Notes: generated by a model from the sequence alone, not told the origin. A DNA stretch of 64,000 nt from Chloroflexota bacterium (GCA_040752335.1 JBFMEV010000008.1:3272-67271); one strand, 5' to 3'; positions 51,693-61,281 are shown, counted from the stretch's first letter. A program made the numbers and translations.

Positions 51693-52760
51693 ATGACCGC
51701 TCGCGAGCTCCCGATGTTCCAGCCCCAGGGGACGGGGCACGTTCACGGCCCGCACGACCCGATCTCGATCGCGATGGGCGGCGGCGGGCTGGCGGCGGTC
51801 CCGGGACTCATGGCCGCGGATGGCACGGCACCGCGCCGCCATCCCGACTGGATCAAGGCCCGGATGCCCGCCGGCGAGACGTACCACGACCTCAAGCGCC
51901 GGCTGCGGGGCCTCAACCTCAACACGGTCTGCGAGGAGGCCCATTGCCCCAACATCGGGGAGTGCTGGGATCAGCGGACCGCCACGATCATGATCCTGGG
52001 CGACACCTGCACCCGGGCCTGCGGTTTCTGCAACATCAAGACCGGCCGGCCCACCTGGTTCGACGACGACGAGCCGCGCCGGGTCGCCGAGGCCCTCGAC
52101 GGCCTCGGCCTGGACCACGTGGTCGTGACCTCGGTCGCCCGCGACGACCTGCCCGACGGCGGCGCCCACGTCTTCGCCGAGACGATCCGTGCGATCCGCG
52201 GGCGGATCCCGGGCATGGGCGTCGAGGTCCTCATCCCCGACTTCAACGGCGCCGAGGCGCCGCTGCGCGAGGTCATGGCCGCCGGGCCGGACATCCTCAA
52301 CCACAACCTCGAGACCGTCCGGCGGCTCCAGAAGCCGGTCCGCAAGCGGGCCCGCTGGGATCGGACGCTCGGTGTCCTGGAGCGGGCCAAGGCGTATGCC
52401 GCCGAGTACGGCCGAGAGGCCCACACGAAGAGCTCGCTGATGGTCGGCCTGGGCGAGACCCGCGCGGAGATGACCGAGGCCTTCGAGGCCCTCCGCGAGG
52501 TCGACGTCGACATCCTCACGATCGGGCAGTACCTCCGCCCCTCGGAGCGGCACCTCCCTGTCGAGCGCTACTACCACCCCGACGAGTTCGCCGAGATGAA
52601 GGCCGAGGCCCTCGCCCTCGGCTTCCGACACGTCGAGTCCGGGCCGCTCGTTCGCTCCAGCTACCACGCTCGGGACCAGGTGCCGGGCGCCGAGCTGCGT
52701 GCCCTCCGCCGCCGCGCGACGCTCGACGCCGACGGCCGGGTGGTCCCGCTCGCGGGCTGA
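51693..52760 (+). CDS. lipA: Lipoyl synthase
   Basis: CEEAHCPNIGEC is the auxiliary cluster. CTRACGFC is the radical SAM cluster. …SSLMVGLGET…SSYHA… is also present. Confidence 0.93.
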   Translation: MTARELPMFQPQGTGHVHGPHDPISIAMGGGGLAAVPGLMAADGTAPRRHPDWIKARMPAGETYHDLKRRLRGLNLNTVCEEAHCPNIGECWDQRTATIMILGDTCTRACGFCNIKTGRPTWFDDDEPRRVAEALDGLGLDHVVVTSVARDDLPDGGAHVFAETIRAIRGRIPGMGVEVLIPDFNGAEAPLREVMAAGPDILNHNLETVRRLQKPVRKRARWDRTLGVLERAKAYAAEYGREAHTKSSLMVGLGETRAEMTEAFEALREVDVDILTIGQYLRPSERHLPVERYYHPDEFAEMKAEALALGFRHVESGPLVRSSYHARDQVPGAELRALRRRATLDADGRVVPLAG

Positions 52761-53072
52761 CGCCCGCCGCCGCGCCGCGCGGCTACGCCCCAGCGCGAGG
52801 CGCAGCTCGTCGGCAAAGCCGCGGTTGCAGGCGCCCTCGCTCGCGCCCTTCGCGATCACGACCGTCACGACGCTCTGGTGCGCGCCGACCGGCACGGATC
52901 CGCCTGCCGCCCGGTAAGCAAGGCCGGTGCCGCCCCCGCGGGTCGCCGACCGTGACGGGTCCGGTCTCAGACAACCCGAGGACGTGCGCCCCCTGCTACA
53001 AGGTGACTCCCACGACAGGGTTGCCCTCCTGAGTCCGGCCGCATAGCTCGCAACCCAGGCATGCGAAAGCGA

Positions 53073-55421
53073 TTAGCTCGTTGGGTCGACGACGAAGTAG
53101 CTGAAGCCCGTGTCGCCCACGACCGGCCCCGTGAGGTGGACGGTGAACGAATTCGCCGCCCACTCGATCCACGAGACAGCGACGGCGGCGCCCGGGTTCT
53201 GATACAGGGAAACGCTCACGTGGCTGTTCGCGGCGGGAACGGCGACCGACGCGGCCGACTCGCCGGCCAGGATCGTGCCAAAGCCAACGGTGCTGAACCG
53301 CACTCGGCCCTGGGCATGAATCGCCGCGCCCGACCCGCCGCCGGAGCGGACCGCGACGATCGCGTCGCCGTCGCCGTCGTCCTTGCGCTCGGCGATCAGC
53401 GCCGCGCCGACGCCACCCTCGCTCCGAATCGCGACGAGCCCGTTGCCGGGCGTCGAGGTCCTCCGCTCGATCACAGCGGCCGGGTGCCCGCCCGGAGAGG
53501 TCGACTCGCTGATCGCCCCCAATGCCCAGCCGTCGCCGTCACCGGACCTCCAGGTCAGCACCCCGTGACCGCCGCCGGGGCCCTCACGTGATGCGGTCAG
53601 CGCTTCGCCGCCGCCGCCGTCCGTTCGAGTCGCCCGGATTGCGCCACCCGGTGCAGAGCCGGATCGCGTCGCCAGCAGCGCGTCCGCGTAGTCAGGATGG
53701 GTGCTGGAGTTGTGCGCCTCGAGCGCCAAGCCGTGGCCCTCGCCGGTCCGGATGACAACGGCCCCATGACCGGGACCAGAGCCTTCCCGGATCGACGTCA
53801 GGCCGCTGCCCGCTCCTTCCTCGGTCCGAGTGGTGTAGACGCCATCCCCCTCGCCCGATCCCGAGCGGTTGGTCCAGATGGCATTGCCAGCACCCTCGTT
53901 CATGCGGTGAGCAGCGACGGCCATCCCGAACGCCGACCCTACGCGGAAGGCTTCTAGGCCGTTTCCGTTCTCTCCATCGTGCCAGGCACGAACACCCGCA
54001 CCCTCGCCACTCCCATGGCGCTCCCCGGTCACGCCCTGGCCGGGGCCGCCGTCGTTGCGCGACGCGGCGAGCCCGTCCCCGTAGCCGGGGCCCTCACCGT
54101 AGCGCTCGGTATGGATCGAATGCCCCAAATCCTCGTCGCCACTTCGGTTCGCGTACATGGCGTTGCCAGGCCCGCCTTGCTCCCGGAACGCGATGATGGC
54201 GTTGCCGTGGCCCGATCCTCGTCGGAAGGCTTCGACGCCGTTGCCGATGCCGTCGTCGTTGCGTTCGCCGACGACGCCTGAGCCAGCACCCGAAGCAGTC
54301 CGAGCGCCGATGACGCCATGTCCGGGTCCGCCGCCGCTGCGATGGCCGCGGATCGCGTCGCCGTAGACGACGTCGCCGTTCCGGTCGGCAACGAGCGCAT
54401 GGGTGTCGTTGTCGGTCTCGTCGTCTCCCTCGCGGAGGGCATATATCGAGTGCCCGGGGCCGCCCGATTCCCTGGATGCATAGAGGGCATTCCCGCCGCC
54501 GGTTCCCCGACGGTGGGCTTCGATACCGTCACCATTGCCGTTGTCGGTCCGATCGCTGACGAGGCCCGCGCCATCCCCCAGCCCTGACTTGATCGTCGAG
54601 AGGCCGTGGCCGAACTCGTCGCCGTCACGATGGGCGTGGATCGCGTCGCCGGGCCCGCCGGGCTCGCGAAACGCGGTGATGGCGTCTCCGCCGCCCTCTC
54701 CGAGCCGATGGCCACGGATTGCTGCCCCGCCACCCGACCCCTCCCGGAAGGCTGCGACCGCGTCGCCCGCATCGCCGTCGTGGTAGGCGTGGACGCCGTC
54801 GCCCTGGCCGGTGCCATGTCGAGCGCCGCTGACTCCGTGCCCATCGCCGCCGTCCCAGCGTTCGCCGAGGACCGCATCGCCGTACGTCGGTGCGTCTCCG
54901 TACCGGACGCCGAGGACGCTGGAGCCGTCGCCGCTGCTCGAGTTGATCGAGGTGACGCCGTCGCCTCCACCGGTGTTGCCCTTCTCGACGTACAGGCCGC
55001 TCCCAGCGGCCTCCTGGTTCTGGTTCAAGTGGATGGCATCGCCTCGACCGTAGCCGTCGATGACTGCCAGGATTGCATGGTCGTCGCCGGTGTCAGCGGC
55101 GCCGCTCCGGTAGACGCTGATCGCGCTCCCCGGCGCGTTCGTGTTCTTCTCGGCGAGGATCGCCTCCCCGCTCCCGGTGCTCAACGCATGGAGAGCCGGA
55201 TCGGCATCGTTCGTTGTGAATGTCGCCGTCGGTGGTCCCGGAGGGAAGGCGAGCACTGCCGCGGGACCTGTCAGGGCCATGGCGGCGGCACCGGCGCCGG
55301 CACCCGCCACCGTTGCCAGGAACGCGCGTCGATCGCGCGGCGAATCGCTCGCGGCGGGTTGACTCGTGGGTTGCGCGTCGACCTCGTCTGGACGCGGCGC
55401 AGTACGCAGGACGCGGGACAT
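53073..55421 (-). CDS. Tat-signal secreted protein made of about 45 tandem 13-residue Gly/Arg/His repeats plus a conserved C-terminal domain (no family recognised)
   Basis: The twin-arginine signal is SPRDRRAFLATVAGAGAGAAAMALTGPAAVLA. The repeats follow G-[DNH]-[GA]-[IVL]-x-[AG]-x-R-x-G-x-G-x. The C-terminus reads …FTVHLT…FSYFVVDP. GGAGGG lies 7 nt upstream of the ATG at 55421. Confidence 0.8.
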   Translation of the reverse strand: MSRVLRTAPRPDEVDAQPTSQPAASDSPRDRRAFLATVAGAGAGAAAMALTGPAAVLAFPPGPPTATFTTNDADPALHALSTGSGEAILAEKNTNAPGSAISVYRSGAADTGDDHAILAVIDGYGRGDAIHLNQNQEAAGSGLYVEKGNTGGGDGVTSINSSSGDGSSVLGVRYGDAPTYGDAVLGERWDGGDGHGVSGARHGTGQGDGVHAYHDGDAGDAVAAFREGSGGGAAIRGHRLGEGGGDAITAFREPGGPGDAIHAHRDGDEFGHGLSTIKSGLGDGAGLVSDRTDNGNGDGIEAHRRGTGGGNALYASRESGGPGHSIYALREGDDETDNDTHALVADRNGDVVYGDAIRGHRSGGGPGHGVIGARTASGAGSGVVGERNDDGIGNGVEAFRRGSGHGNAIIAFREQGGPGNAMYANRSGDEDLGHSIHTERYGEGPGYGDGLAASRNDGGPGQGVTGERHGSGEGAGVRAWHDGENGNGLEAFRVGSAFGMAVAAHRMNEGAGNAIWTNRSGSGEGDGVYTTRTEEGAGSGLTSIREGSGPGHGAVVIRTGEGHGLALEAHNSSTHPDYADALLATRSGSAPGGAIRATRTDGGGGEALTASREGPGGGHGVLTWRSGDGDGWALGAISESTSPGGHPAAVIERRTSTPGNGLVAIRSEGGVGAALIAERKDDGDGDAIVAVRSGGGSGAAIHAQGRVRFSTVGFGTILAGESAASVAVPAANSHVSVSLYQNPGAAVAVSWIEWAANSFTVHLTGPVVGDTGFSYFVVDPTS
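53307..55175 (-). repeat. In-frame 39-bp periodic coding repeat array (degenerate)
   Basis: The 13-aa period is visible over about 620 residues. An example run is GDAVAAFREGSGG/GAAIRGHRLGEGG/GDAITAFREPGGP/GDAIHAHRDGDEF/GHGLSTIKSGLGD. Confidence 0.8.
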
Positions 55422-55809
55422 TGCCAGACCCTCCACTCCGTATCGCTTGGTCTGGCCGGTAGACGCGCCGAGCCGTTATGCATTACGGCCGCGGGCGAAG
55501 CCGGCGAGCCCGCGATATCAGGCCGGGGTCAGGCCTCCAGCGCGGGCAAGGTCGCTCGCGACACCCCCCGGCCGGGCTCCGGATCGCGCATGTGTATCAC
55601 CCGGGCCTCTCCGTGTCACCAGGTTTCGCAGAGTCCGGTGCCCGGACGCACCACCCCCGCTCGTTGCGGAGCACTGACCGGGCAAGCGAACCGACCCACG
55701 CGGGGAAGCGACTATGCCATCGGGCGCGGCCCGTCCGTCCGCGTGGCTCCGGGTGCGTATAGGACCGCGCGCGGGCTGACCGCCAGAGGTGGCCGATCTG
55801 CCCGGAGCC

Positions 55810-56523
55810 TCAGCTGCCCGACTTCAGGGCCGCCAGCCGAGCGTCGACCTCGAGCTCGTCCTCCGCCGAGTCGAGCGAGGCGAACTGCTCTTCGAGCGAG
55901 GAGGCCGAGACCTCCTCCATCCCGCGGACCATCGCCTCCTGGCGCCGGACGTTCTCCTCGAAGCGCGAGATCTCGCTCGTGGGGTCCATGACCGAGACGC
56001 TCTTCATCGTCTGCTGGACCTGGGCCTGGGCGCGGGCCATCTTGGCCCGGCTGACGAGCTCGTCGCGCTTCTGGACGAGCTCCTCGCGGCGGACGCGAAG
56101 CTTGTTGAGGCCGTCCTTGAGCTTGTTCGCCAGCTCGGTCTGCTGGGCCGCCTGCGTCTCGAGGGTCTTCGCCTGCTCCTCGTAGCTGATCTGGCGGCGG
56201 AGGGCGATCTTCGCGAGCTCGTCGAAGCGGTCAGCCTCGGTGGCGTTGCCGCCGCTCCGCAGTTCGTCCGCCCGCCGCGACGCCGCTGCGGCCTTGCCGC
56301 CCCACTCGGTGACGGCCTCGCGGGCCTCGCGGGCGTCGTCCTCGACGAGGCGAAGGTTGCCGATCGTCTGGGCCACGGCCTCCTCGGCCTCGGCCATGTT
56401 GTTCGTGTAGTCGCGGACCAGCTGGTCGAGCATCTTCTCGGGGTCCTCGGCGCTGTCGAGGATCGCGTTGACGTTCGCCCGGATGAGCTGGCCGATCCGG
56501 CCGAGGATCGACGACTGAGCCAT
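55810..56523 (-). CDS. pspA: PspA/IM30 (ESCRT-III-like membrane-remodelling) protein
   Basis: The N-terminus is MAQSSILGRIGQLIRANVNAILDSAEDPEKMLDQLVRDY…, followed by a long coiled coil. AAGGAGG lies 5 nt upstream of the ATG. Confidence 0.92.
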   Translation of the reverse strand: MAQSSILGRIGQLIRANVNAILDSAEDPEKMLDQLVRDYTNNMAEAEEAVAQTIGNLRLVEDDAREAREAVTEWGGKAAAASRRADELRSGGNATEADRFDELAKIALRRQISYEEQAKTLETQAAQQTELANKLKDGLNKLRVRREELVQKRDELVSRAKMARAQAQVQQTMKSVSVMDPTSEISRFEENVRRQEAMVRGMEEVSASSLEEQFASLDSAEDELEVDARLAALKSGS

Positions 56524-56587
56524 GCCTACCTCCTTCGGGGTGCTGCCCCGCGAAGCCTACCTGCCTGATGGATCGAGATGGCCCGGC

Positions 56588-58657
56588 TCACCACCGGCCG
56601 CCCCGCGAATGCCCGCCGCCGCCCCCGCCGAAGCCACCGCCCCGGCTGTGGCCTCCGCCGCCCCAACCGCCGCCGCCCCCGCCCCCAGACGGGCCGGATG
56701 AGCCCCACGGCGAGCCGCCCCAGCCGCCGCCATGGTGGCCGCCGCCGGACAGGATCCCGCCGATGATGCCGCCGAGGATCGCCCCGGCGATATCCGACCC
56801 GCCACCGCCCCGCGTGGGGCTCGGCCCACCGCGGTCCCACTTATCGAAGTCCGAGGCCGCGAGCGCGTACGCCTCCTCGGCCAGTCGTTCCGCGCGCTTG
56901 GAGTGCTCCATCGCCGCCGCGGGGTCGGCGTCGCGGAGGCGGACCGCGGTCTCGAGTGACCGCTCGGCCTCGGCCAGCCGCGTTCGGGCCCGGCGCCCGA
57001 CGCCGCCCCGGCGGGTAGCGATGAAGTCGGATGCCCGGTCGACGTCGGCCGCGGCCGCAGCCAGCGACGCGTTCAGCGCGGCCGCGAACTGGGCCCGCTG
57101 CTCGGCGTCACGGCGAACGGCGGCGAGGGCCTCGCCCGCACCACGTCGGGCCGTGGCCGCGAGTCTGATGGCTCCCAGCGGGTCGCGCGGCGTGGTGGTC
57201 GCGGCCGCCGTCGCGGCGCGGAGGGCATCCGCGGCCGCGTCGAAGCTGGCCGGAACCGCCGGCGCCACGCCGGAGGCCGAGGTCGCGGCGCGAAGACCAC
57301 CCCTCGCCGCGGCGAGGTCGGCGTCGGCCGCCCGGAGCTCGTCGGCCAGCTTCGACTCGGCCTCGCGGACCGAGGCAGCCAGCTTGTCGATGGCATCGAG
57401 GAGCTTGGTCGCGCCGGCGATCCCCTCCTGGGCCGTGACGATCTCGCGGGCGGCGGTCCGCCCGTTGCCCTTGGCCGCCGCCGCCAGCCCGCGCTCAATG
57501 GCGGCCCGGGCCCCGGTCAGGCCCTTGCGGGCCTCGGCGGCGTTGCCGATCACGGGGCCCCACGTCGACTCCGCATAGCCGCGGAGCTCGCCGAGCGTCG
57601 ACTCGGCGCCAGGCAGGTGGCGCTCCTGGGCCTCGACGAGCGCCGGCAGGCCGGCCAGGATCGTCGGGGCATTGCGCTCCAGGTTGCGGAGTTCGTCGAT
57701 CCGGGCGGCCTGGCGGTCGAGGGCGGCCCCGGCCCGGCTGCAGCGGGAGACGATCTCGTTGAGCATCGCCTCACGGGTCGGCGGGTCCTCGGGCTCGGCA
57801 TCGTCGAGCTTCTGGCGGACCCCGAACGCCGCGCGGAGCTCGTCGCGGGCCTCGGCGATCGCTGCCCGGAAGGGCTTCGCCTCGGCCTCCCCGTACTCGG
57901 CCTCGACAAAGCCGGCCTCCTGATCGGCGGTCCGGGTGCGCTCGTCGACGGCGATGAGCATCGAGTTCGCCTCGCGCGCGAGCCTGCCGGTCCGCCGATC
58001 GCGCTCCTCCGCCTCGCGCCACCTCCCAACCCGGGATGCCAGCCAGGCGCCAAGGATGACGACGCCGCCGCTGACGAGGACGAAGCCGACGATGATGCCG
58101 AGATCAAGGCCGCCACTCGCGGCTCCGCCGCCATCGTCAGCGGGCGGCTCGGTCGCAACCGGGGTGGGTTCCGCGGTCGGGATCACTTCGGGCTCGGACG
58201 CCTTGCCGAGCCCTCCGGCGGTCGCGATCGCCGCGCCCGCGACGTCACCGTCGCGGAGGGCCGGCTCGAGGGTGTCGGAGATGATCGAGTCGAGCTCGAG
58301 GTCGGTGATCTCGTCGTCGAGGCGGTCGGAGACCCAGATCGCATCCGTCCGGTCCCCCATCGCCACGACCAGCAGCGCGTCATCGGCGCCGAGCGAATTC
58401 AGCCGGGCGGTCTCGTCAGCGAACTCGGTGACCGTCAGGTCGTCGGTGGTGTCGACGAACAGGACGAAGAGCTGGACGCCGTGCTCGTCGAGGAGGTCGG
58501 CAAGGGCCGCCTCGACGGCATCGACCTCGCCGCCGAGGGCGTCGACCTGGTCCGTGACGGCCCCGTCGAGCCGGGGCGGGGCGGCCGCCAGCACGCCGGT
58601 CGCACACGCGAACGCGAGGCCGATGGCGAGGAGCGAGGGGATTCGAAGGGTTCGCAT
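56588..58657 (-). CDS. TPM-domain membrane protein with a roughly 430-aa cytoplasmic helical region and a Gly-rich tail
   Basis: Signal peptide, then a TPM fold (…VTDQVDALGG…LFVLFVDTT…ALLVVAMGDRTDAIWVSD…). One TM helix (IIVGFVLVSGGVVILGAWLA). A long Ala/Arg/Glu-rich helical segment. The tail reads GGHHGGGWGGSPWG…GGGGGGHSRGGRW. Confidence 0.85.
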   Translation of the reverse strand: MRTLRIPSLLAIGLAFACATGVLAAAPPRLDGAVTDQVDALGGEVDAVEAALADLLDEHGVQLFVLFVDTTDDLTVTEFADETARLNSLGADDALLVVAMGDRTDAIWVSDRLDDEITDLELDSIISDTLEPALRDGDVAGAAIATAGGLGKASEPEVIPTAEPTPVATEPPADDGGGAASGGLDLGIIVGFVLVSGGVVILGAWLASRVGRWREAEERDRRTGRLAREANSMLIAVDERTRTADQEAGFVEAEYGEAEAKPFRAAIAEARDELRAAFGVRQKLDDAEPEDPPTREAMLNEIVSRCSRAGAALDRQAARIDELRNLERNAPTILAGLPALVEAQERHLPGAESTLGELRGYAESTWGPVIGNAAEARKGLTGARAAIERGLAAAAKGNGRTAAREIVTAQEGIAGATKLLDAIDKLAASVREAESKLADELRAADADLAAARGGLRAATSASGVAPAVPASFDAAADALRAATAAATTTPRDPLGAIRLAATARRGAGEALAAVRRDAEQRAQFAAALNASLAAAAADVDRASDFIATRRGGVGRRARTRLAEAERSLETAVRLRDADPAAAMEHSKRAERLAEEAYALAASDFDKWDRGGPSPTRGGGGSDIAGAILGGIIGGILSGGGHHGGGWGGSPWGSSGPSGGGGGGGWGGGGHSRGGGFGGGGGGHSRGGRW

Positions 58658-58725
58658 GTTCCCGGTTCGGGCGGGCAGGGTACGGGGACCCGTCAATCGT
58701 ATTCGGGAACGCCCGGACGGACAGA

Positions 58726-58758
58726 GACGCTCGGCCCGAACGAGTTGGGCCGAGCGTC
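58726..58758 (-). terminator. Strong hairpin terminator after the 435-aa repeat-protein gene
   Basis: GACGCTCGGCCC-(9 nt)-GGGCCGAGCGTC is a 12-bp perfect stem. It ends 43 nt downstream of the stop at 58801 (minus-strand sense). Confidence 0.6.
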
Positions 58759-58800
58759 AGTCTCGATCGGTTGGCGGCCGCCCCCCCGGCCGACCGCCGA

Positions 58801-60108
58801 TCAAGCGGGATCGACGATGAAGTACGAGAAGTCGACGGGATTCGTCGCCGGGCTCGTGAGGTGGACGGTGAAGCTGACCCCAGGAACGCGAGTGACGTAG
58901 GCCACGCTCGCCCCGGCGTCGCCGAGCAGCGTCACCGAAACGTGGCTCGCGCCGCCAACCATCGCGGTCGCGATGGTGGCGCTGCTCTCGGTGGCACCGA
59001 TCGACCCCGAGCCGACCGAGGCGAACCGTGAGCGACCCTCGACGAGCAGCCCGAGTTCGCCGACGGCGTGAACGGCCGCGCCTGGCCCGGCTTCCCGGCG
59101 GGCGAACAGCGCATCGCCCTCCGCGCTCCCGTCATGGTGGCCGAACAGAGCGAAGCCGGTCCCGTCATCGTGCTTGTACGCGGCAACGGCGGAACCGTGT
59201 CCGGAACCGGTGCGATCCGAAATGATCGCGTCACCCTCACCAGCGCCGCTCCGGCTGGCCTCAATCGCATGGCCGGGCGCGGTGCTGTCGTTCTCGCCCC
59301 GGAGCCCGGTCCCGCCGCCGCCGCCGGTGCGGATGGCTCGCAGGCCTGCGCCAGGTGAGTCGCCGTAGCGGACACCCAGGATGGCGTCCGCGTACTCGCC
59401 GACATCGCTGTGGTTGTGGGCCTCGAGGGCAGAGCCGTGGCCCTCGGGGTTCCGCATGACAAAGGCGCCGTGGCCGAACCCGGGACCCTCACGGATGGCG
59501 ACCACGCCGCTCCCGGTCCCCTCTCCCGTCCGGGTCAGGTACGCCCCGTCACCCTCACCGGCACCCGATCGGTCGGTCCAGACGCCGTGGCCGCCGCCGT
59601 CGTCCATCCGGTGGGCGGCGATGGCCTGCCCGTACGACGGACCGACCCGGAACGCCGAGAGCCCCTCACCAGCGTCGCCGTCGTGCCAGGCGCTCACCGC
59701 GTCGCCAGAGCCGGTGTCATGGCGCTCGCCACTGACCCCGTTGCCCGACCCGGAGCCAAACCGCAGCCCGGCGATCCCCGGACCCGCGCCTTCGTCAAAG
59801 TGCGCCCCGACCACGCCGGAGCCTTCGCCGTTGCCGGAGCGCTCGCCCCAGACGCCGTCGCCGTTGGAGCCCGTGCTGACGCCCTTCAGGCCCGGGCCGG
59901 TGGCGGTATTGATCCCCGTGAGCGCCGGGTCATCGTCGTGGCTTGTGAACGTGGGGTTCGGGGGTCCCTGCGGCACGGCGAGCGCCGCGGCCGGCACCGC
60001 GAGGGCGACCGCGGCGGCGCCTGCGCCAGCCCCGGCCACGGCCGCGAGAAACGCCCGTCGATCCTTGCCCTGCCTCTGCGTGTCGGGGCTGTCTGTTCGC
60101 TCCATCAC
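58801..60108 (-). CDS. Tat-signal secreted 13-residue-repeat protein, shorter paralog of 53073-55421
   Basis: The signal is GKDRRAFLAAVAGAGAGAAAVALAVPAAALA. It has about 21 repeats of the same type. The C-terminus reads …FTVHLT…FSYFIVDPA. GGAGGA lies upstream of GTG 60108 / ATG 60105. Confidence 0.8.
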   Translation of the reverse strand: MMERTDSPDTQRQGKDRRAFLAAVAGAGAGAAAVALAVPAAALAVPQGPPNPTFTSHDDDPALTGINTATGPGLKGVSTGSNGDGVWGERSGNGEGSGVVGAHFDEGAGPGIAGLRFGSGSGNGVSGERHDTGSGDAVSAWHDGDAGEGLSAFRVGPSYGQAIAAHRMDDGGGHGVWTDRSGAGEGDGAYLTRTGEGTGSGVVAIREGPGFGHGAFVMRNPEGHGSALEAHNHSDVGEYADAILGVRYGDSPGAGLRAIRTGGGGGTGLRGENDSTAPGHAIEASRSGAGEGDAIISDRTGSGHGSAVAAYKHDDGTGFALFGHHDGSAEGDALFARREAGPGAAVHAVGELGLLVEGRSRFASVGSGSIGATESSATIATAMVGGASHVSVTLLGDAGASVAYVTRVPGVSFTVHLTSPATNPVDFSYFIVDPA

Positions 60109-60225
60109 CGATGTCCTCCTTGGACGCCTAGCTCAGATTCAGGACGCGATCGCGTCGCGAGCGTTACAGCGGAAGACGTACCGGCGGGTCGCCCCGGCTC
60201 TGCTCGACCCCGTATCCTTCGGGCT

Positions 60226-61281
60226 ATGGTCCGCCACCTGTCCCGGTCGATCCCGCTGGCCGAGCTCCACTGCCATCTCGGCGCGGCGGTGACGCCGGCG
60301 ATCATGTGGGGCATCGCCCACTCCCAGGGCATCAAGCTCCCGACCAAGGACTACTGGGAGTTCCGCGAGCTCATCACGGTCAAGCCCCACGGCACGAAGT
60401 CGTTCGACGGCTACCTCCAGCTCTTCCACTGGACCGAGCTCATCCAGAGCTCGCCGCTGGCGGTCGAGCGGAGCGTGTACGAGGTCGTCGGCGGGGCCTA
60501 CCGGAAGAACAACGTCACGACGATGGAGCTCCGCTTCAACCCCATGAAGCGGAACCGGGGCGGCGAGCAGGACCTCGATCACATCATCGCCGCGGCGACA
60601 CGGGGCATGGACCGGGCGAGCCTCGAATACCCGATCAAGCCGGGCCTGATCTTCTGCCTCGACCGGGCCTTCCCGTACGAGCTCAACGAGATCATCGTGG
60701 AGAAGGCGATCGCCTGGCGCGATCGCGGCGTCGTCGGCGTCGACATCGCCGGTCCCGAATCGAGCACCTTCCGGGTCGCCGAGTATCGCAAGCTGTTCCG
60801 CCGCGCTCGCCAGTTTGGGCTCGGGATCACGGTCCACACCGGCGAAGCCGGCCCGGTCGAGGAGGTCGCCCGCGTCGTCGAGCTCCTGGAGCCCGATCGG
60901 ATCGGCCACGGCGTCAAGGCCGCCTACGACCCCCGGGCGATGGCGATGATCCGGGAGCGGGGCATCGTCCTCGAGATCTGCCCGACCTCGAACCTCAACA
61001 CGAAGGTCGTCTCGGGTTGGGATGAGATCCGCTGGATCTTCGACACCTTCCGCCGCAATGGCGTCCGATTCACGATCTCGACTGACGGGCCGGAGATGCT
61101 CAAGACCTACATCCGGGACGAGCTGGCGACGCTCGGCCGGCTGGGGATCCTGTCGGTCGAGGAGCAGGAGCAGGCGGCCGCGACCGCGATGGCCGCGTCC
61201 TTCGTCCCGAACGTCTCCGACGTCCCGCTGCCCGCCCGCCCGCCGGCGACCCGCGAGGCCGTGGAGCGCGAAGAGGCATAG
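60226..61281 (+). CDS. Adenosine/adenine deaminase-family metallohydrolase
   Basis: LAELHCHLG is the HxH metal site. …GVDIAG…, …ITVHTGE… and …ISTDGP… are present. Confidence 0.85.
   Translation: MVRHLSRSIPLAELHCHLGAAVTPAIMWGIAHSQGIKLPTKDYWEFRELITVKPHGTKSFDGYLQLFHWTELIQSSPLAVERSVYEVVGGAYRKNNVTTMELRFNPMKRNRGGEQDLDHIIAAATRGMDRASLEYPIKPGLIFCLDRAFPYELNEIIVEKAIAWRDRGVVGVDIAGPESSTFRVAEYRKLFRRARQFGLGITVHTGEAGPVEEVARVVELLEPDRIGHGVKAAYDPRAMAMIRERGIVLEICPTSNLNTKVVSGWDEIRWIFDTFRRNGVRFTISTDGPEMLKTYIRDELATLGRLGILSVEEQEQAAATAMAASFVPNVSDVPLPARPPATREAVEREEA

Follow-up and report, generated by a model that had tools for sequence, protein, structure and literature searches.

The window analysed here is a stretch of 64,000 nucleotides from a Chloroflexota bacterium (GCA_040752335.1, JBFMEV010000008.1:3272-67271) and is part of contig C8 in a genome of 3.2 Mb, 84 contigs and about 72% GC. 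Across positions 53073-60108 it contains four open reading frames (ORFs) on the minus strand, which in the direction of transcription are RepS, a gene for a TPM-domain membrane protein (here TPM), pspA and RepL (Table 1). RepS and RepL encode repetitive proteins with signals for twin-arginine translocation (Tat), collectively referred to as Rep. The cluster is flanked by two genes on the plus strand, lipA, which ends at 52760, and the adenosine-deaminase gene ada, which starts at about 60229. An earlier note on this DNA had described four consecutive minus-strand genes and read them as one candidate system for envelope stress or envelope building. All four ORFs were confirmed, as was the claim that the upstream and downstream repeat proteins are paralogs, with 45% identity over 372 amino acids (E 7e-78). 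RepS and RepL are the only Rep copies in the genome and pspA is present as a single copy. A search against Pfam and NCBIfam yielded matches to TPM and PspA only, leaving RepS and RepL without a family.

Table 1. Features of the cluster between lipA and ada; positions are counted from the first nucleotide of the window
Feature	Position	Strand	Description
GTAACG motif	60162-60167	-	54-59 nt upstream of the RepS start
RepS	58801-60108	-	ORF, 435 amino acids; Tat signal, about 22 repeat units, predicted C-terminal beta-sandwich of about 90 amino acids; allele type A
Hairpin	58726-58758	-	12-bp perfect stem: GACGCTCGGCCC, 9-nt loop, GGGCCGAGCGTC; between RepS and TPM
TPM-domain membrane protein	56588-58657 (ATG) or to 58696 (TTG)	-	YdjH/YgcG type; Pfam TPM_phosphatase
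PspA/IM30	55810-56523	-	237 amino acids; PF04012 E 3.5e-36, TIGR02977 E 6.8e-20
RepL upstream spacer	55422-55809	-	388 bp; TAATGCATAA within the near-palindrome GCCGTAATGCATAACGGC; motif ATAACGG at 55473-55479
RepL	53073-55421 (ATG, GGAGGG ribosome-binding site) or to 55436 (GTG)	-	782 amino acids; about 45 repeat units; allele type B
Gene X remnant	52791-53079	-	Last ~100 codons; frameshifted, stop-containing; directly downstream of RepL
Insert of ~3.0 kb	52762-55780		RepL upstream spacer, RepL and gene X remnant; in the window's genome only, compared with genomes G028 and G032

For a comparison within the genus, in which the window's own genome is G000, we located ada in 33 genomes, retrieved its lipA-facing side and mapped the genes of the window onto each. 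The interval bounded by lipA and ada, which are co-directional housekeeping genes, is a cargo hotspot in the genus. It is empty in G025, G030, G004, G003, G012 and G036, with a gap of 6-80 bp between the two genes, and is occupied by unrelated cargo (a radical-SAM gene, lipoproteins and an ABC transporter) in nine genomes. TPM and pspA are found alone in G032, where 276 bp separate ada from TPM, and in G002 and G034; Rep is found alone in G015, in the metagenome contig L031 and in L078. The arrangement Rep-TPM-PspA occurs in G028 and four metagenome contigs. Finally, the L027 locus has an intact Rep followed by a gene for a secreted protein, gene X, while TPM is gone and pspA is reduced to a remnant without residues 1-57 and 72-119. 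Altogether, Rep was detected in only 3 of 37 genus genomes.

The Rep and PspA-TPM units each persist without the other, and this separation in both directions within the genus does not support the proposal of a four-gene system that includes the Tat repeat proteins. A Fisher test of Rep against PspA-TPM over 22 resolved genus loci gave p = 0.17. Moreover, all co-occurrences of the two are located at one orthologous locus in one lineage, and therefore represent a single evolutionary event.

Several further observations were made on the interval. The loci L033-L052 comprise at least six different gene sets, with the radical-SAM gene (MRPEYREEPCRSALNRV...), the lipoproteins and an ABC transporter of the amino-acid type among them. 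The ada gene (60229-61281) is 97-98% identical among G000, G028, G032 and G002, with more divergence in the cargo (TPM 67-71%, Rep 56%); since the cargo has diverged beyond ada, its alleles seem to predate the flanks or to be imports by comparison with them. The L027 contig (DATIUS010000085.1), labelled Candidatus Sulfomarinibacteraceae, has the same ada-Rep locus, in which ada is 90% identical over its first 39 residues, and is probably a mis-binned Chloroflexota contig.

We also searched for the linkage outside the genus by running a profile of the Rep C-terminal domain on 401 sampled Chloroflexota genomes and then locating PF04012 in the carriers. The domain was present in 30 of the 401 genomes, 29 of them outside the genus, and in none of these 29 did the domain gene share a contig with pspA at a distance of 90 kb or less; the smallest separation was 99 kb (G197). 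The closest outside relatives with 13-mer-like repeats (P0004, P0006 and P0008) had neither PspA nor TPM as neighbours in any of the three cases. Their neighbourhoods, of unrelated genes, contained a GH57 glycosidase with an alcohol dehydrogenase; an M10 peptidase with an AI-2E transporter; and DUF1326, PpoB2, a Tricorn-like protein and an ECF sigma factor. When the Rep-bearing genomes were scanned for TPM, those with family f24 (see below) had no match at E 1e-5, so that they provide no adjacency control outside the genus. Conservation of the neighbourhood around the Rep C-terminal domain was the check that the earlier note had named for its own proposal, and the outcome went against it. Rep, TPM and PspA are not a conserved gene module, as the combination did not recur at independent loci in the genomes compared.

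TPM and pspA, on the other hand, adjoin in the same order in all seven genus genomes that have pspA (G000, G002, G014, G017, G028, G032 and G034). In the window, a spacer of 64 nt lies between TPM and pspA; the latter has a strong ribosome-binding site, GAAGGAGG, and is probably co-transcribed with TPM. Inspection by eye of the 64-nt spacer (56524-56587, minus strand) also indicated a possible small stem, CTTCGCGGGG...CCCCGAAG, overlapping this site. The TPM_phosphatase domain corresponds to residues 47-164 of the TPM protein (Pfam, E 1.6e-20). Hydrophobic segments are located at residues 21-39, a signal or transmembrane (TM) segment, and 199-217, a TM segment that is separated from the domain by a Pro/Glu linker and followed by an Arg-rich stretch. 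The TPM domain is predicted to be outside the membrane, between the N-terminal signal or TM segment and the second TM segment, and PspA inside, in agreement with the extracytoplasmic and cytoplasmic placements claimed previously.

The remainder of the TPM protein consists of a region of about 390 amino acids (residues 236-625) that is predicted to be cytoplasmic, with 26% Ala, 12% Arg and 9% Glu, and of a tail (residues 626-702) that is 53% Gly and ends in GGRW. The cytoplasmic region matched no Pfam family and a sequence search of PDB gave no meaningful relative of the TPM protein; the Gly-rich GGRW tail is kept in the TPM orthologs of G032, G034, G014, G002 and L029. PspA scored 125.3 bits against PF04012 (cut-off 33.9), with residues 5-235 spanning positions 1-216 of the 220 in the profile. 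It scored below the cut-offs of the NCBIfam equivalog models for E. coli PspA and LiaH, and hence we classify it as a member of the PspA_IM30 family and not of those orthologous groups.

In G017, the TPM-pspA pair is located at another locus than the lipA-ada interval. It is found there twice (L024, on C1 at ~1.92 Mb, and L025, on C2 at ~0.18 Mb), near contig ends and away from lipA and ada, with pspA divided between two frames and a single reading frame that continues from TPM into pspA. The split and duplicated pair could result from a long-read indel error or from a true duplication with a frameshift. A second long ORF with a TPM domain (580-700 amino acids), unlinked to pspA, was seen at G015:C81:16946-17341 and G028:C7:3341-3736 as well as in G184:C3 and G335:C7, and was not found by tblastn in the window's own assembly.

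The spacer between RepS and TPM contains a hairpin that had been described as the terminator of the upstream paralog. The 12-bp hairpin itself is real: the 101-nt spacer in which it resides has a folding energy of -59.9 kcal/mol (z = -4.0), and 0 of 200 shuffled sequences fold as well. The hairpin, which is unique in the window, has no U-tract and was not called in a terminator scan, and identical 12-bp stems are located upstream of TPM in G028, G032 and G002, although G032 and G002 have no Rep gene. In G032, the sole gene upstream of the hairpin is ada, which is transcribed away from it. Since the stems are kept where no Rep precedes TPM, the hairpin belongs to the upstream region of TPM-pspA. 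Judging from this comparison it is not simply a terminator of the upstream paralog, and it could be a structure in the 5' untranslated region, an attenuator or an operator.

Each Rep start examined has the word yGTAACGg upstream of it, at a distance of about 50-70 nt, and G032, which has no Rep, contains the word in the spacer between ada and TPM; GTAACG occurs only 7 times in the window, counting both strands. We regard yGTAACGg as a candidate promoter element that serves as a lead only. A promoter scan yielded no sigma-70-like sites, and an Rfam search of the intergenic regions gave nothing credible, with no match in the 388-bp spacer upstream of RepL.

The two Rep proteins have the same architecture, with a Tat signal, 13-residue repeats and a predicted C-terminal beta-sandwich. 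Both N-termini contain DRRAFLA followed by a Gly/Ala hydrophobic region that ends in ALA or VLA, and cleavage at the AxA-type site is predicted between DRRAFLAAVAGAGAGAAAVALAVPAAALA and VP in RepS, and between DRRAFLATVAGAGAGAAAMALTGPAAVLA and FP in RepL. The genome encodes TatC (206.6 bits). With a twin-arginine motif, a hydrophobic region, a cleavage site and TatC all in place, RepS and RepL are both predicted to be exported by Tat. Autocorrelation gave peaks at lags of 13, 26 and 39, so that the repeat period is 13 residues and not about 20, and Gly makes up about 25% of the repeat region. Thus, of the earlier description as Tat-signal solenoid-like proteins, the twin-arginine signals hold for both RepS and RepL, but a solenoid is not established. 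The Rep repeats had no profile match or significant structural match to the pentapeptide, hexapeptide LbH, RTX, pectate-lyase beta-helix or YadA head classes. RepL gave no Pfam match even at E values up to 1, and no PHROG family matched RepS or RepL.

An exhaustive phmmer search with RepS retrieved 204 clusters (50% identity) at E values up to 0.001, nearly all of which match the last ~95 residues only. The matching proteins are mostly 200-490 amino acids in size and consist of an RRxLL signal, Gly-rich repeats of the GxGVxG type and the C-terminal domain, which ends ...GFTVHL...FTYLIVEP; the RRxLL motif is present in most full-length members. A word-indexed homolog search, in which Gly-rich words saturate the index, returned one protein with RepS and none with the C-terminal region. 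For scanning metagenomes by pattern, the first Rep alignment proved too divergent; with a narrower alignment, only two locus types came up, both already known.

The sequence identities of the Rep proteins differed between domains. In the C-terminal domain, RepL is 65% identical to the G015 protein and 49% identical to RepS, whereas in the shaft the G015 protein is 65% identical to RepS and 42% identical to RepL. As the C-terminal types are out of step with the shaft phylogeny, the sequences point to mosaic Rep alleles and domain shuffling between them. In alignment A2, C-terminal type A comprised RepS, G028, L027 and P0002, and type B comprised RepL and G015, with P0001 and P0003 nearer to type B.

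We modelled the RepS monomer with AlphaFold2. Using an alignment of 13 sequences, the mean predicted local distance difference test score (pLDDT) was 69.6, while the model from a single sequence had a pLDDT of 38 and was useless. In the alignment-based model, residues 73-349 form one beta-strand per 13 residues, and residues 361-433, where pLDDT exceeds 90, form a beta-sandwich. The RepS C-terminus matched K1-lyase_C (PF24146) at 15.2 bits (E 0.031), below the cut-off of 27 bits, and matches to the same family were obtained in 29 of the 40 Rep-type C-terminal domains aligned, with a best E value of 1.6e-6. In a Foldseek search of predicted viral structures (BFVD), the C-terminal 70-80 residues of RepS gave local matches with probability 1.0 and a root-mean-square deviation of 1.7-3.0 A to phage proteins annotated as 'K1 capsule-specific polysaccharide lyase C-terminal domain' and 'H-type lectin'. 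The whole RepS chain gave nothing significant against PDB, the best matches being tailspikes (E 0.019, template modelling score 0.13), and a PDB sequence search with the C-terminal-domain profile gave chance matches to DegQ only. From sequence profiles and model together, the Rep C-terminal domain is likely a divergent homolog of K1-lyase_C, Rep itself scoring below the threshold, and the model suggests fibre-like proteins with a repetitive shaft and a lectin-like tip. The Rep genes are cellular and not phage genes, since there was no PHROG match and no phage genes are located nearby.

A conserved-neighbour survey of the C-terminal-domain family covered 17 Chloroflexota loci. The family f24 (L053-L057, L064-L066, L068 and L069) consists of proteins of 240-480 amino acids that have the same K1-lyase_C-like C-terminal domain and a Pro/Ala/Ser-rich body. 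Its members share as neighbours a divergent SRPBCC protein, an HD-domain protein and a GAF/PAS sensor kinase of ~1000 amino acids. Since f24 proteins have neither Tat signals nor Gly repeats, this neighbourhood is uninformative about the function of Rep.

The comparison with G028 and G032 also suggested how the second Rep gene came to be located next to pspA. Homology to these genomes ends just past the lipA stop codon and restarts exactly at the pspA stop codon, delimiting the insert in the window's genome. At each border of the insert is a copy of the last 16 nt or so of lipA (52746-52761 and 55765-55780; 15 of 16 matches, spacing 3019), and this direct repeat looks like the recombination joint of two cargo cassettes. 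The 388-bp gap upstream of RepL and its AT-rich element (55476-55485), both reported previously, are present in the sequence. Part of this spacer, 55564-55652, is homologous to the spacer upstream of Rep in G028 (L012, 10651-10739), with 73% identity over 92 nt; an origin of the spacer as a remnant of ada or lipA was rejected because no such homology appeared in the comparison. At the other end of the insert, tblastn detected the gene X remnant across two reading frames, with a combined E of 7e-14 and 50% identity over 56 amino acids, and blastn aligned it to L027 (69% over 292 nt), where the intact gene (1611-2390) encodes a secreted protein of 259 amino acids directly after Rep. A relative of X with 419 amino acids was observed in the lipA-ada interval of G020 (L044). 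As judged from the loci compared, a PspA-TPM pair flanked by two Rep paralogs is a feature of the window's genome alone.

We consider it probable that the cluster consists of a TPM-pspA membrane-maintenance pair and two independent, fast-evolving genes for Tat-exported, fibre-like proteins that are co-located in a cargo hotspot. The core unit would be the two-gene TPM-pspA operon. By analogy with B. subtilis YdjH/SamH, the TPM protein would most likely be a membrane-embedded sensor or anchor, and under stress it would recruit or control an ESCRT-III-like polymer of PspA on the membrane's inner face. Folding of the Rep proteins, and probably their trimerisation too, would most likely take place in the cytoplasm, which would explain their use of Tat for export in the folded state, and they would then act at the cell surface by binding a glycan or another surface. 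TPM-pspA and Rep would represent separate cargo units of the interval. A second cassette, composed of the Rep upstream spacer, RepL and the X remnant, would have been joined in tandem to a G028-like Rep-TPM-PspA cassette at the 16-nt repeat of the lipA end, which is the simplest account of the two flanking paralogs. Taken as a whole, this reading is a likely one, and the juxtaposition would then reflect the recombination history of a hotspot rather than a four-gene machine.

Several points weigh against it. Rep is located beside an intact PspA-TPM pair in two locus types, G000 and G028-like, and the pspA remnant next to Rep in L027 implies that the association of Rep with pspA is older than the window's genome. 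The genomes sampled in the genus are metagenome-derived and incomplete (58-94% complete), with several loci stopping at contig breaks (G002, G014). The trimeric fibre model rests on a monomer model of the mean pLDDT given above and on domain matches of Rep that are below the threshold. There is also a plausible functional reason for the linkage: PspA is known to relieve saturation of Tat export in E. coli (DeLisa et al. 2004, cited in PMC6708511) and raises Tat translocation in bacteria (PMC6708511). Taking up this effect, Rep fibres would be heavy Tat cargo, being bulky and folded before export, and an adjacent PspA-TPM pair might guard the proton-motive force and the membrane during their export, or sense the build-up of external Rep via TPM. 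The hairpin would then adjust how much Rep is made relative to TPM-PspA in a single transcription unit, by partial termination or attenuation. Such a coupling to export load would account for the same-strand order in G000 and the G028-type loci, where TPM-pspA directly follows Rep, and for the pspA remnant downstream of Rep in L027. It is also consistent with a hairpin that, having no U-tract, makes read-through plausible, and with GTAACG upstream of both Rep and the hairpin of the Rep-less G032, compatible with one shared promoter position. However, G015, L031, L078 and L027 retain Rep with no functional PspA-TPM, and G032, G002, G034 and G017 retain PspA-TPM with no Rep. Rep is not associated with PspA or TPM at any independent locus, neither in the 29 outside-genus genomes nor in the three closest relatives, and the co-occurrences amount to a single event that is not significant within the genus. 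We therefore find the coupling rather unlikely, although it is the main rival. A bolder version, in which Rep represents a new class of cellular, Tat-exported and trimeric surface fibres resembling tail fibres, with an undescribed shaft of 13-residue repeats and a K1-lyase_C/H-lectin tip, and in which export is wired to a dedicated PspA-TPM pair with the hairpin as attenuator of the fibre-to-repair ratio in one transcript, appears unlikely.

The envelope-building function proposed earlier could be realised if Rep proteins were subunits of a surface layer or sheath, with TPM as an extracytoplasmic assembly chaperone and PspA stabilising the membrane at the assembly sites. TPM domains have been proposed to be chaperone-like factors for assembling membrane-linked complexes (PMC11237479), and Rep is repetitive and predicted to be exported. 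Nevertheless, a protein present in so few genomes of the genus is not a core envelope component, TPM-PspA exists without it, and the mosaic and fast-evolving Rep alleles resemble surface-recognition proteins more than conserved structural lattices, which makes this explanation very improbable. We give hardly any credence to the idea that Rep genes are tail-fibre genes left by a prophage or tailocin and that the cluster is a degraded mobile element. The relationship of the C-terminal domain to K1-lyase_C of phage tailspikes, the tail fibres among the Foldseek matches, and the insertion scars and pseudogene remnant at the locus would all fit such an origin, but neither RepS nor RepL matches a PHROG family, the interval contains no phage structural, integrase or lysis genes and is flanked by lipA and ada, and twin-arginine signals are present on Rep and on most of its 204 relatives. 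To our knowledge, virion proteins do not have twin-arginine signals.

The main outcome is a correction: same-strand adjacency in one genome implied a four-part envelope system, while the sister genomes show two separable units. For the first of these units, the results indicate that the PspA-TPM partnership, which has been studied only in Bacillus, is also present in Chloroflexota. Its form there is a minimal pair of genes with a much longer cytoplasmic arm and no SPFH adaptor, which is relevant to the recruitment of PspA to membranes. The second, the Rep family, is widespread and appears to be unstudied, and combines Tat signals and Gly-rich repeats with a tip of the phage-tailspike type. If Rep proteins are indeed trimeric fibres exported by Tat in the folded state, they would be cellular counterparts of the receptor-binding proteins of phages and, as cargo of Tat, an unusual class. 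A link between PspA and the load of Tat export is possible and unproven.

Among known systems, the closest to the TPM-pspA pair is the pspA-ydjGHI (pspA-samGHI) operon of B. subtilis, in which pspA is likewise located beside the gene for a TPM membrane protein of the YdjH/SamH type. Pairing of PspA with TPM had been mentioned in the earlier note as already reported, and the two are indeed described as an envelope-stress pair: next to pspA lies a gene whose product, a membrane protein, has its TPM domain outside the cytoplasm, followed by a TM segment and by a cytoplasmic part that is of low complexity or a coiled coil (PMC11237479; PMC13713150). In B. subtilis, the TPM domain is extracellular and YdjH/SamH is tied to the recruitment and control of PspA (PMC13713150). 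The cluster in the window differs from that operon in that TPM precedes pspA, in that the TPM protein is about 690 amino acids in size and has a helical cytoplasmic region of ~390 amino acids without a Pfam match, and in that the host belongs to the Chloroflexota and not to the Firmicutes. It also differs in gene content, since the lipA-ada interval, with RepL, pspA, TPM and RepS as its only genes, contains neither YdjG/SamG (zinc-ribbon) nor YdjI/SamI (SPFH/Band-7), and for this reason TPM and PspA are a minimal variant of the known membrane partnership.

The TPM membrane proteins of the E. coli YgcG/COG1512 type have a Gly-rich C-terminal tail that ends in Trp. The protein in the window shares with them the TPM domain, the TM segment and the glycine-rich tail (...GGRW-COOH), but has a long helical segment between the TM segment and the tail, and the linked partner of its gene is pspA, not LemA. 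The effect of PspA on Tat in E. coli has in common with the present case that PspA and Tat substrates coexist in one cell, here encoded side by side, whereas the E. coli effect is general, acting via the proton-motive force, and involves no dedicated gene module. Finally, Rep can be compared with the phage tailspikes and tail fibres that contain K1-lyase_C, such as the K1 capsule lyase of a Klebsiella phage (PDB 7w1c and 7w1d). Both have an elongated, beta-rich body followed by a C-terminal beta-sandwich of ~70-90 amino acids, which in Rep is predicted. In contrast to the tailspikes, however, Rep proteins have Tat signals and are encoded by cellular genes, and their body consists of 13-residue Gly-rich repeats rather than a right-handed beta-helix of the pectate-lyase type.

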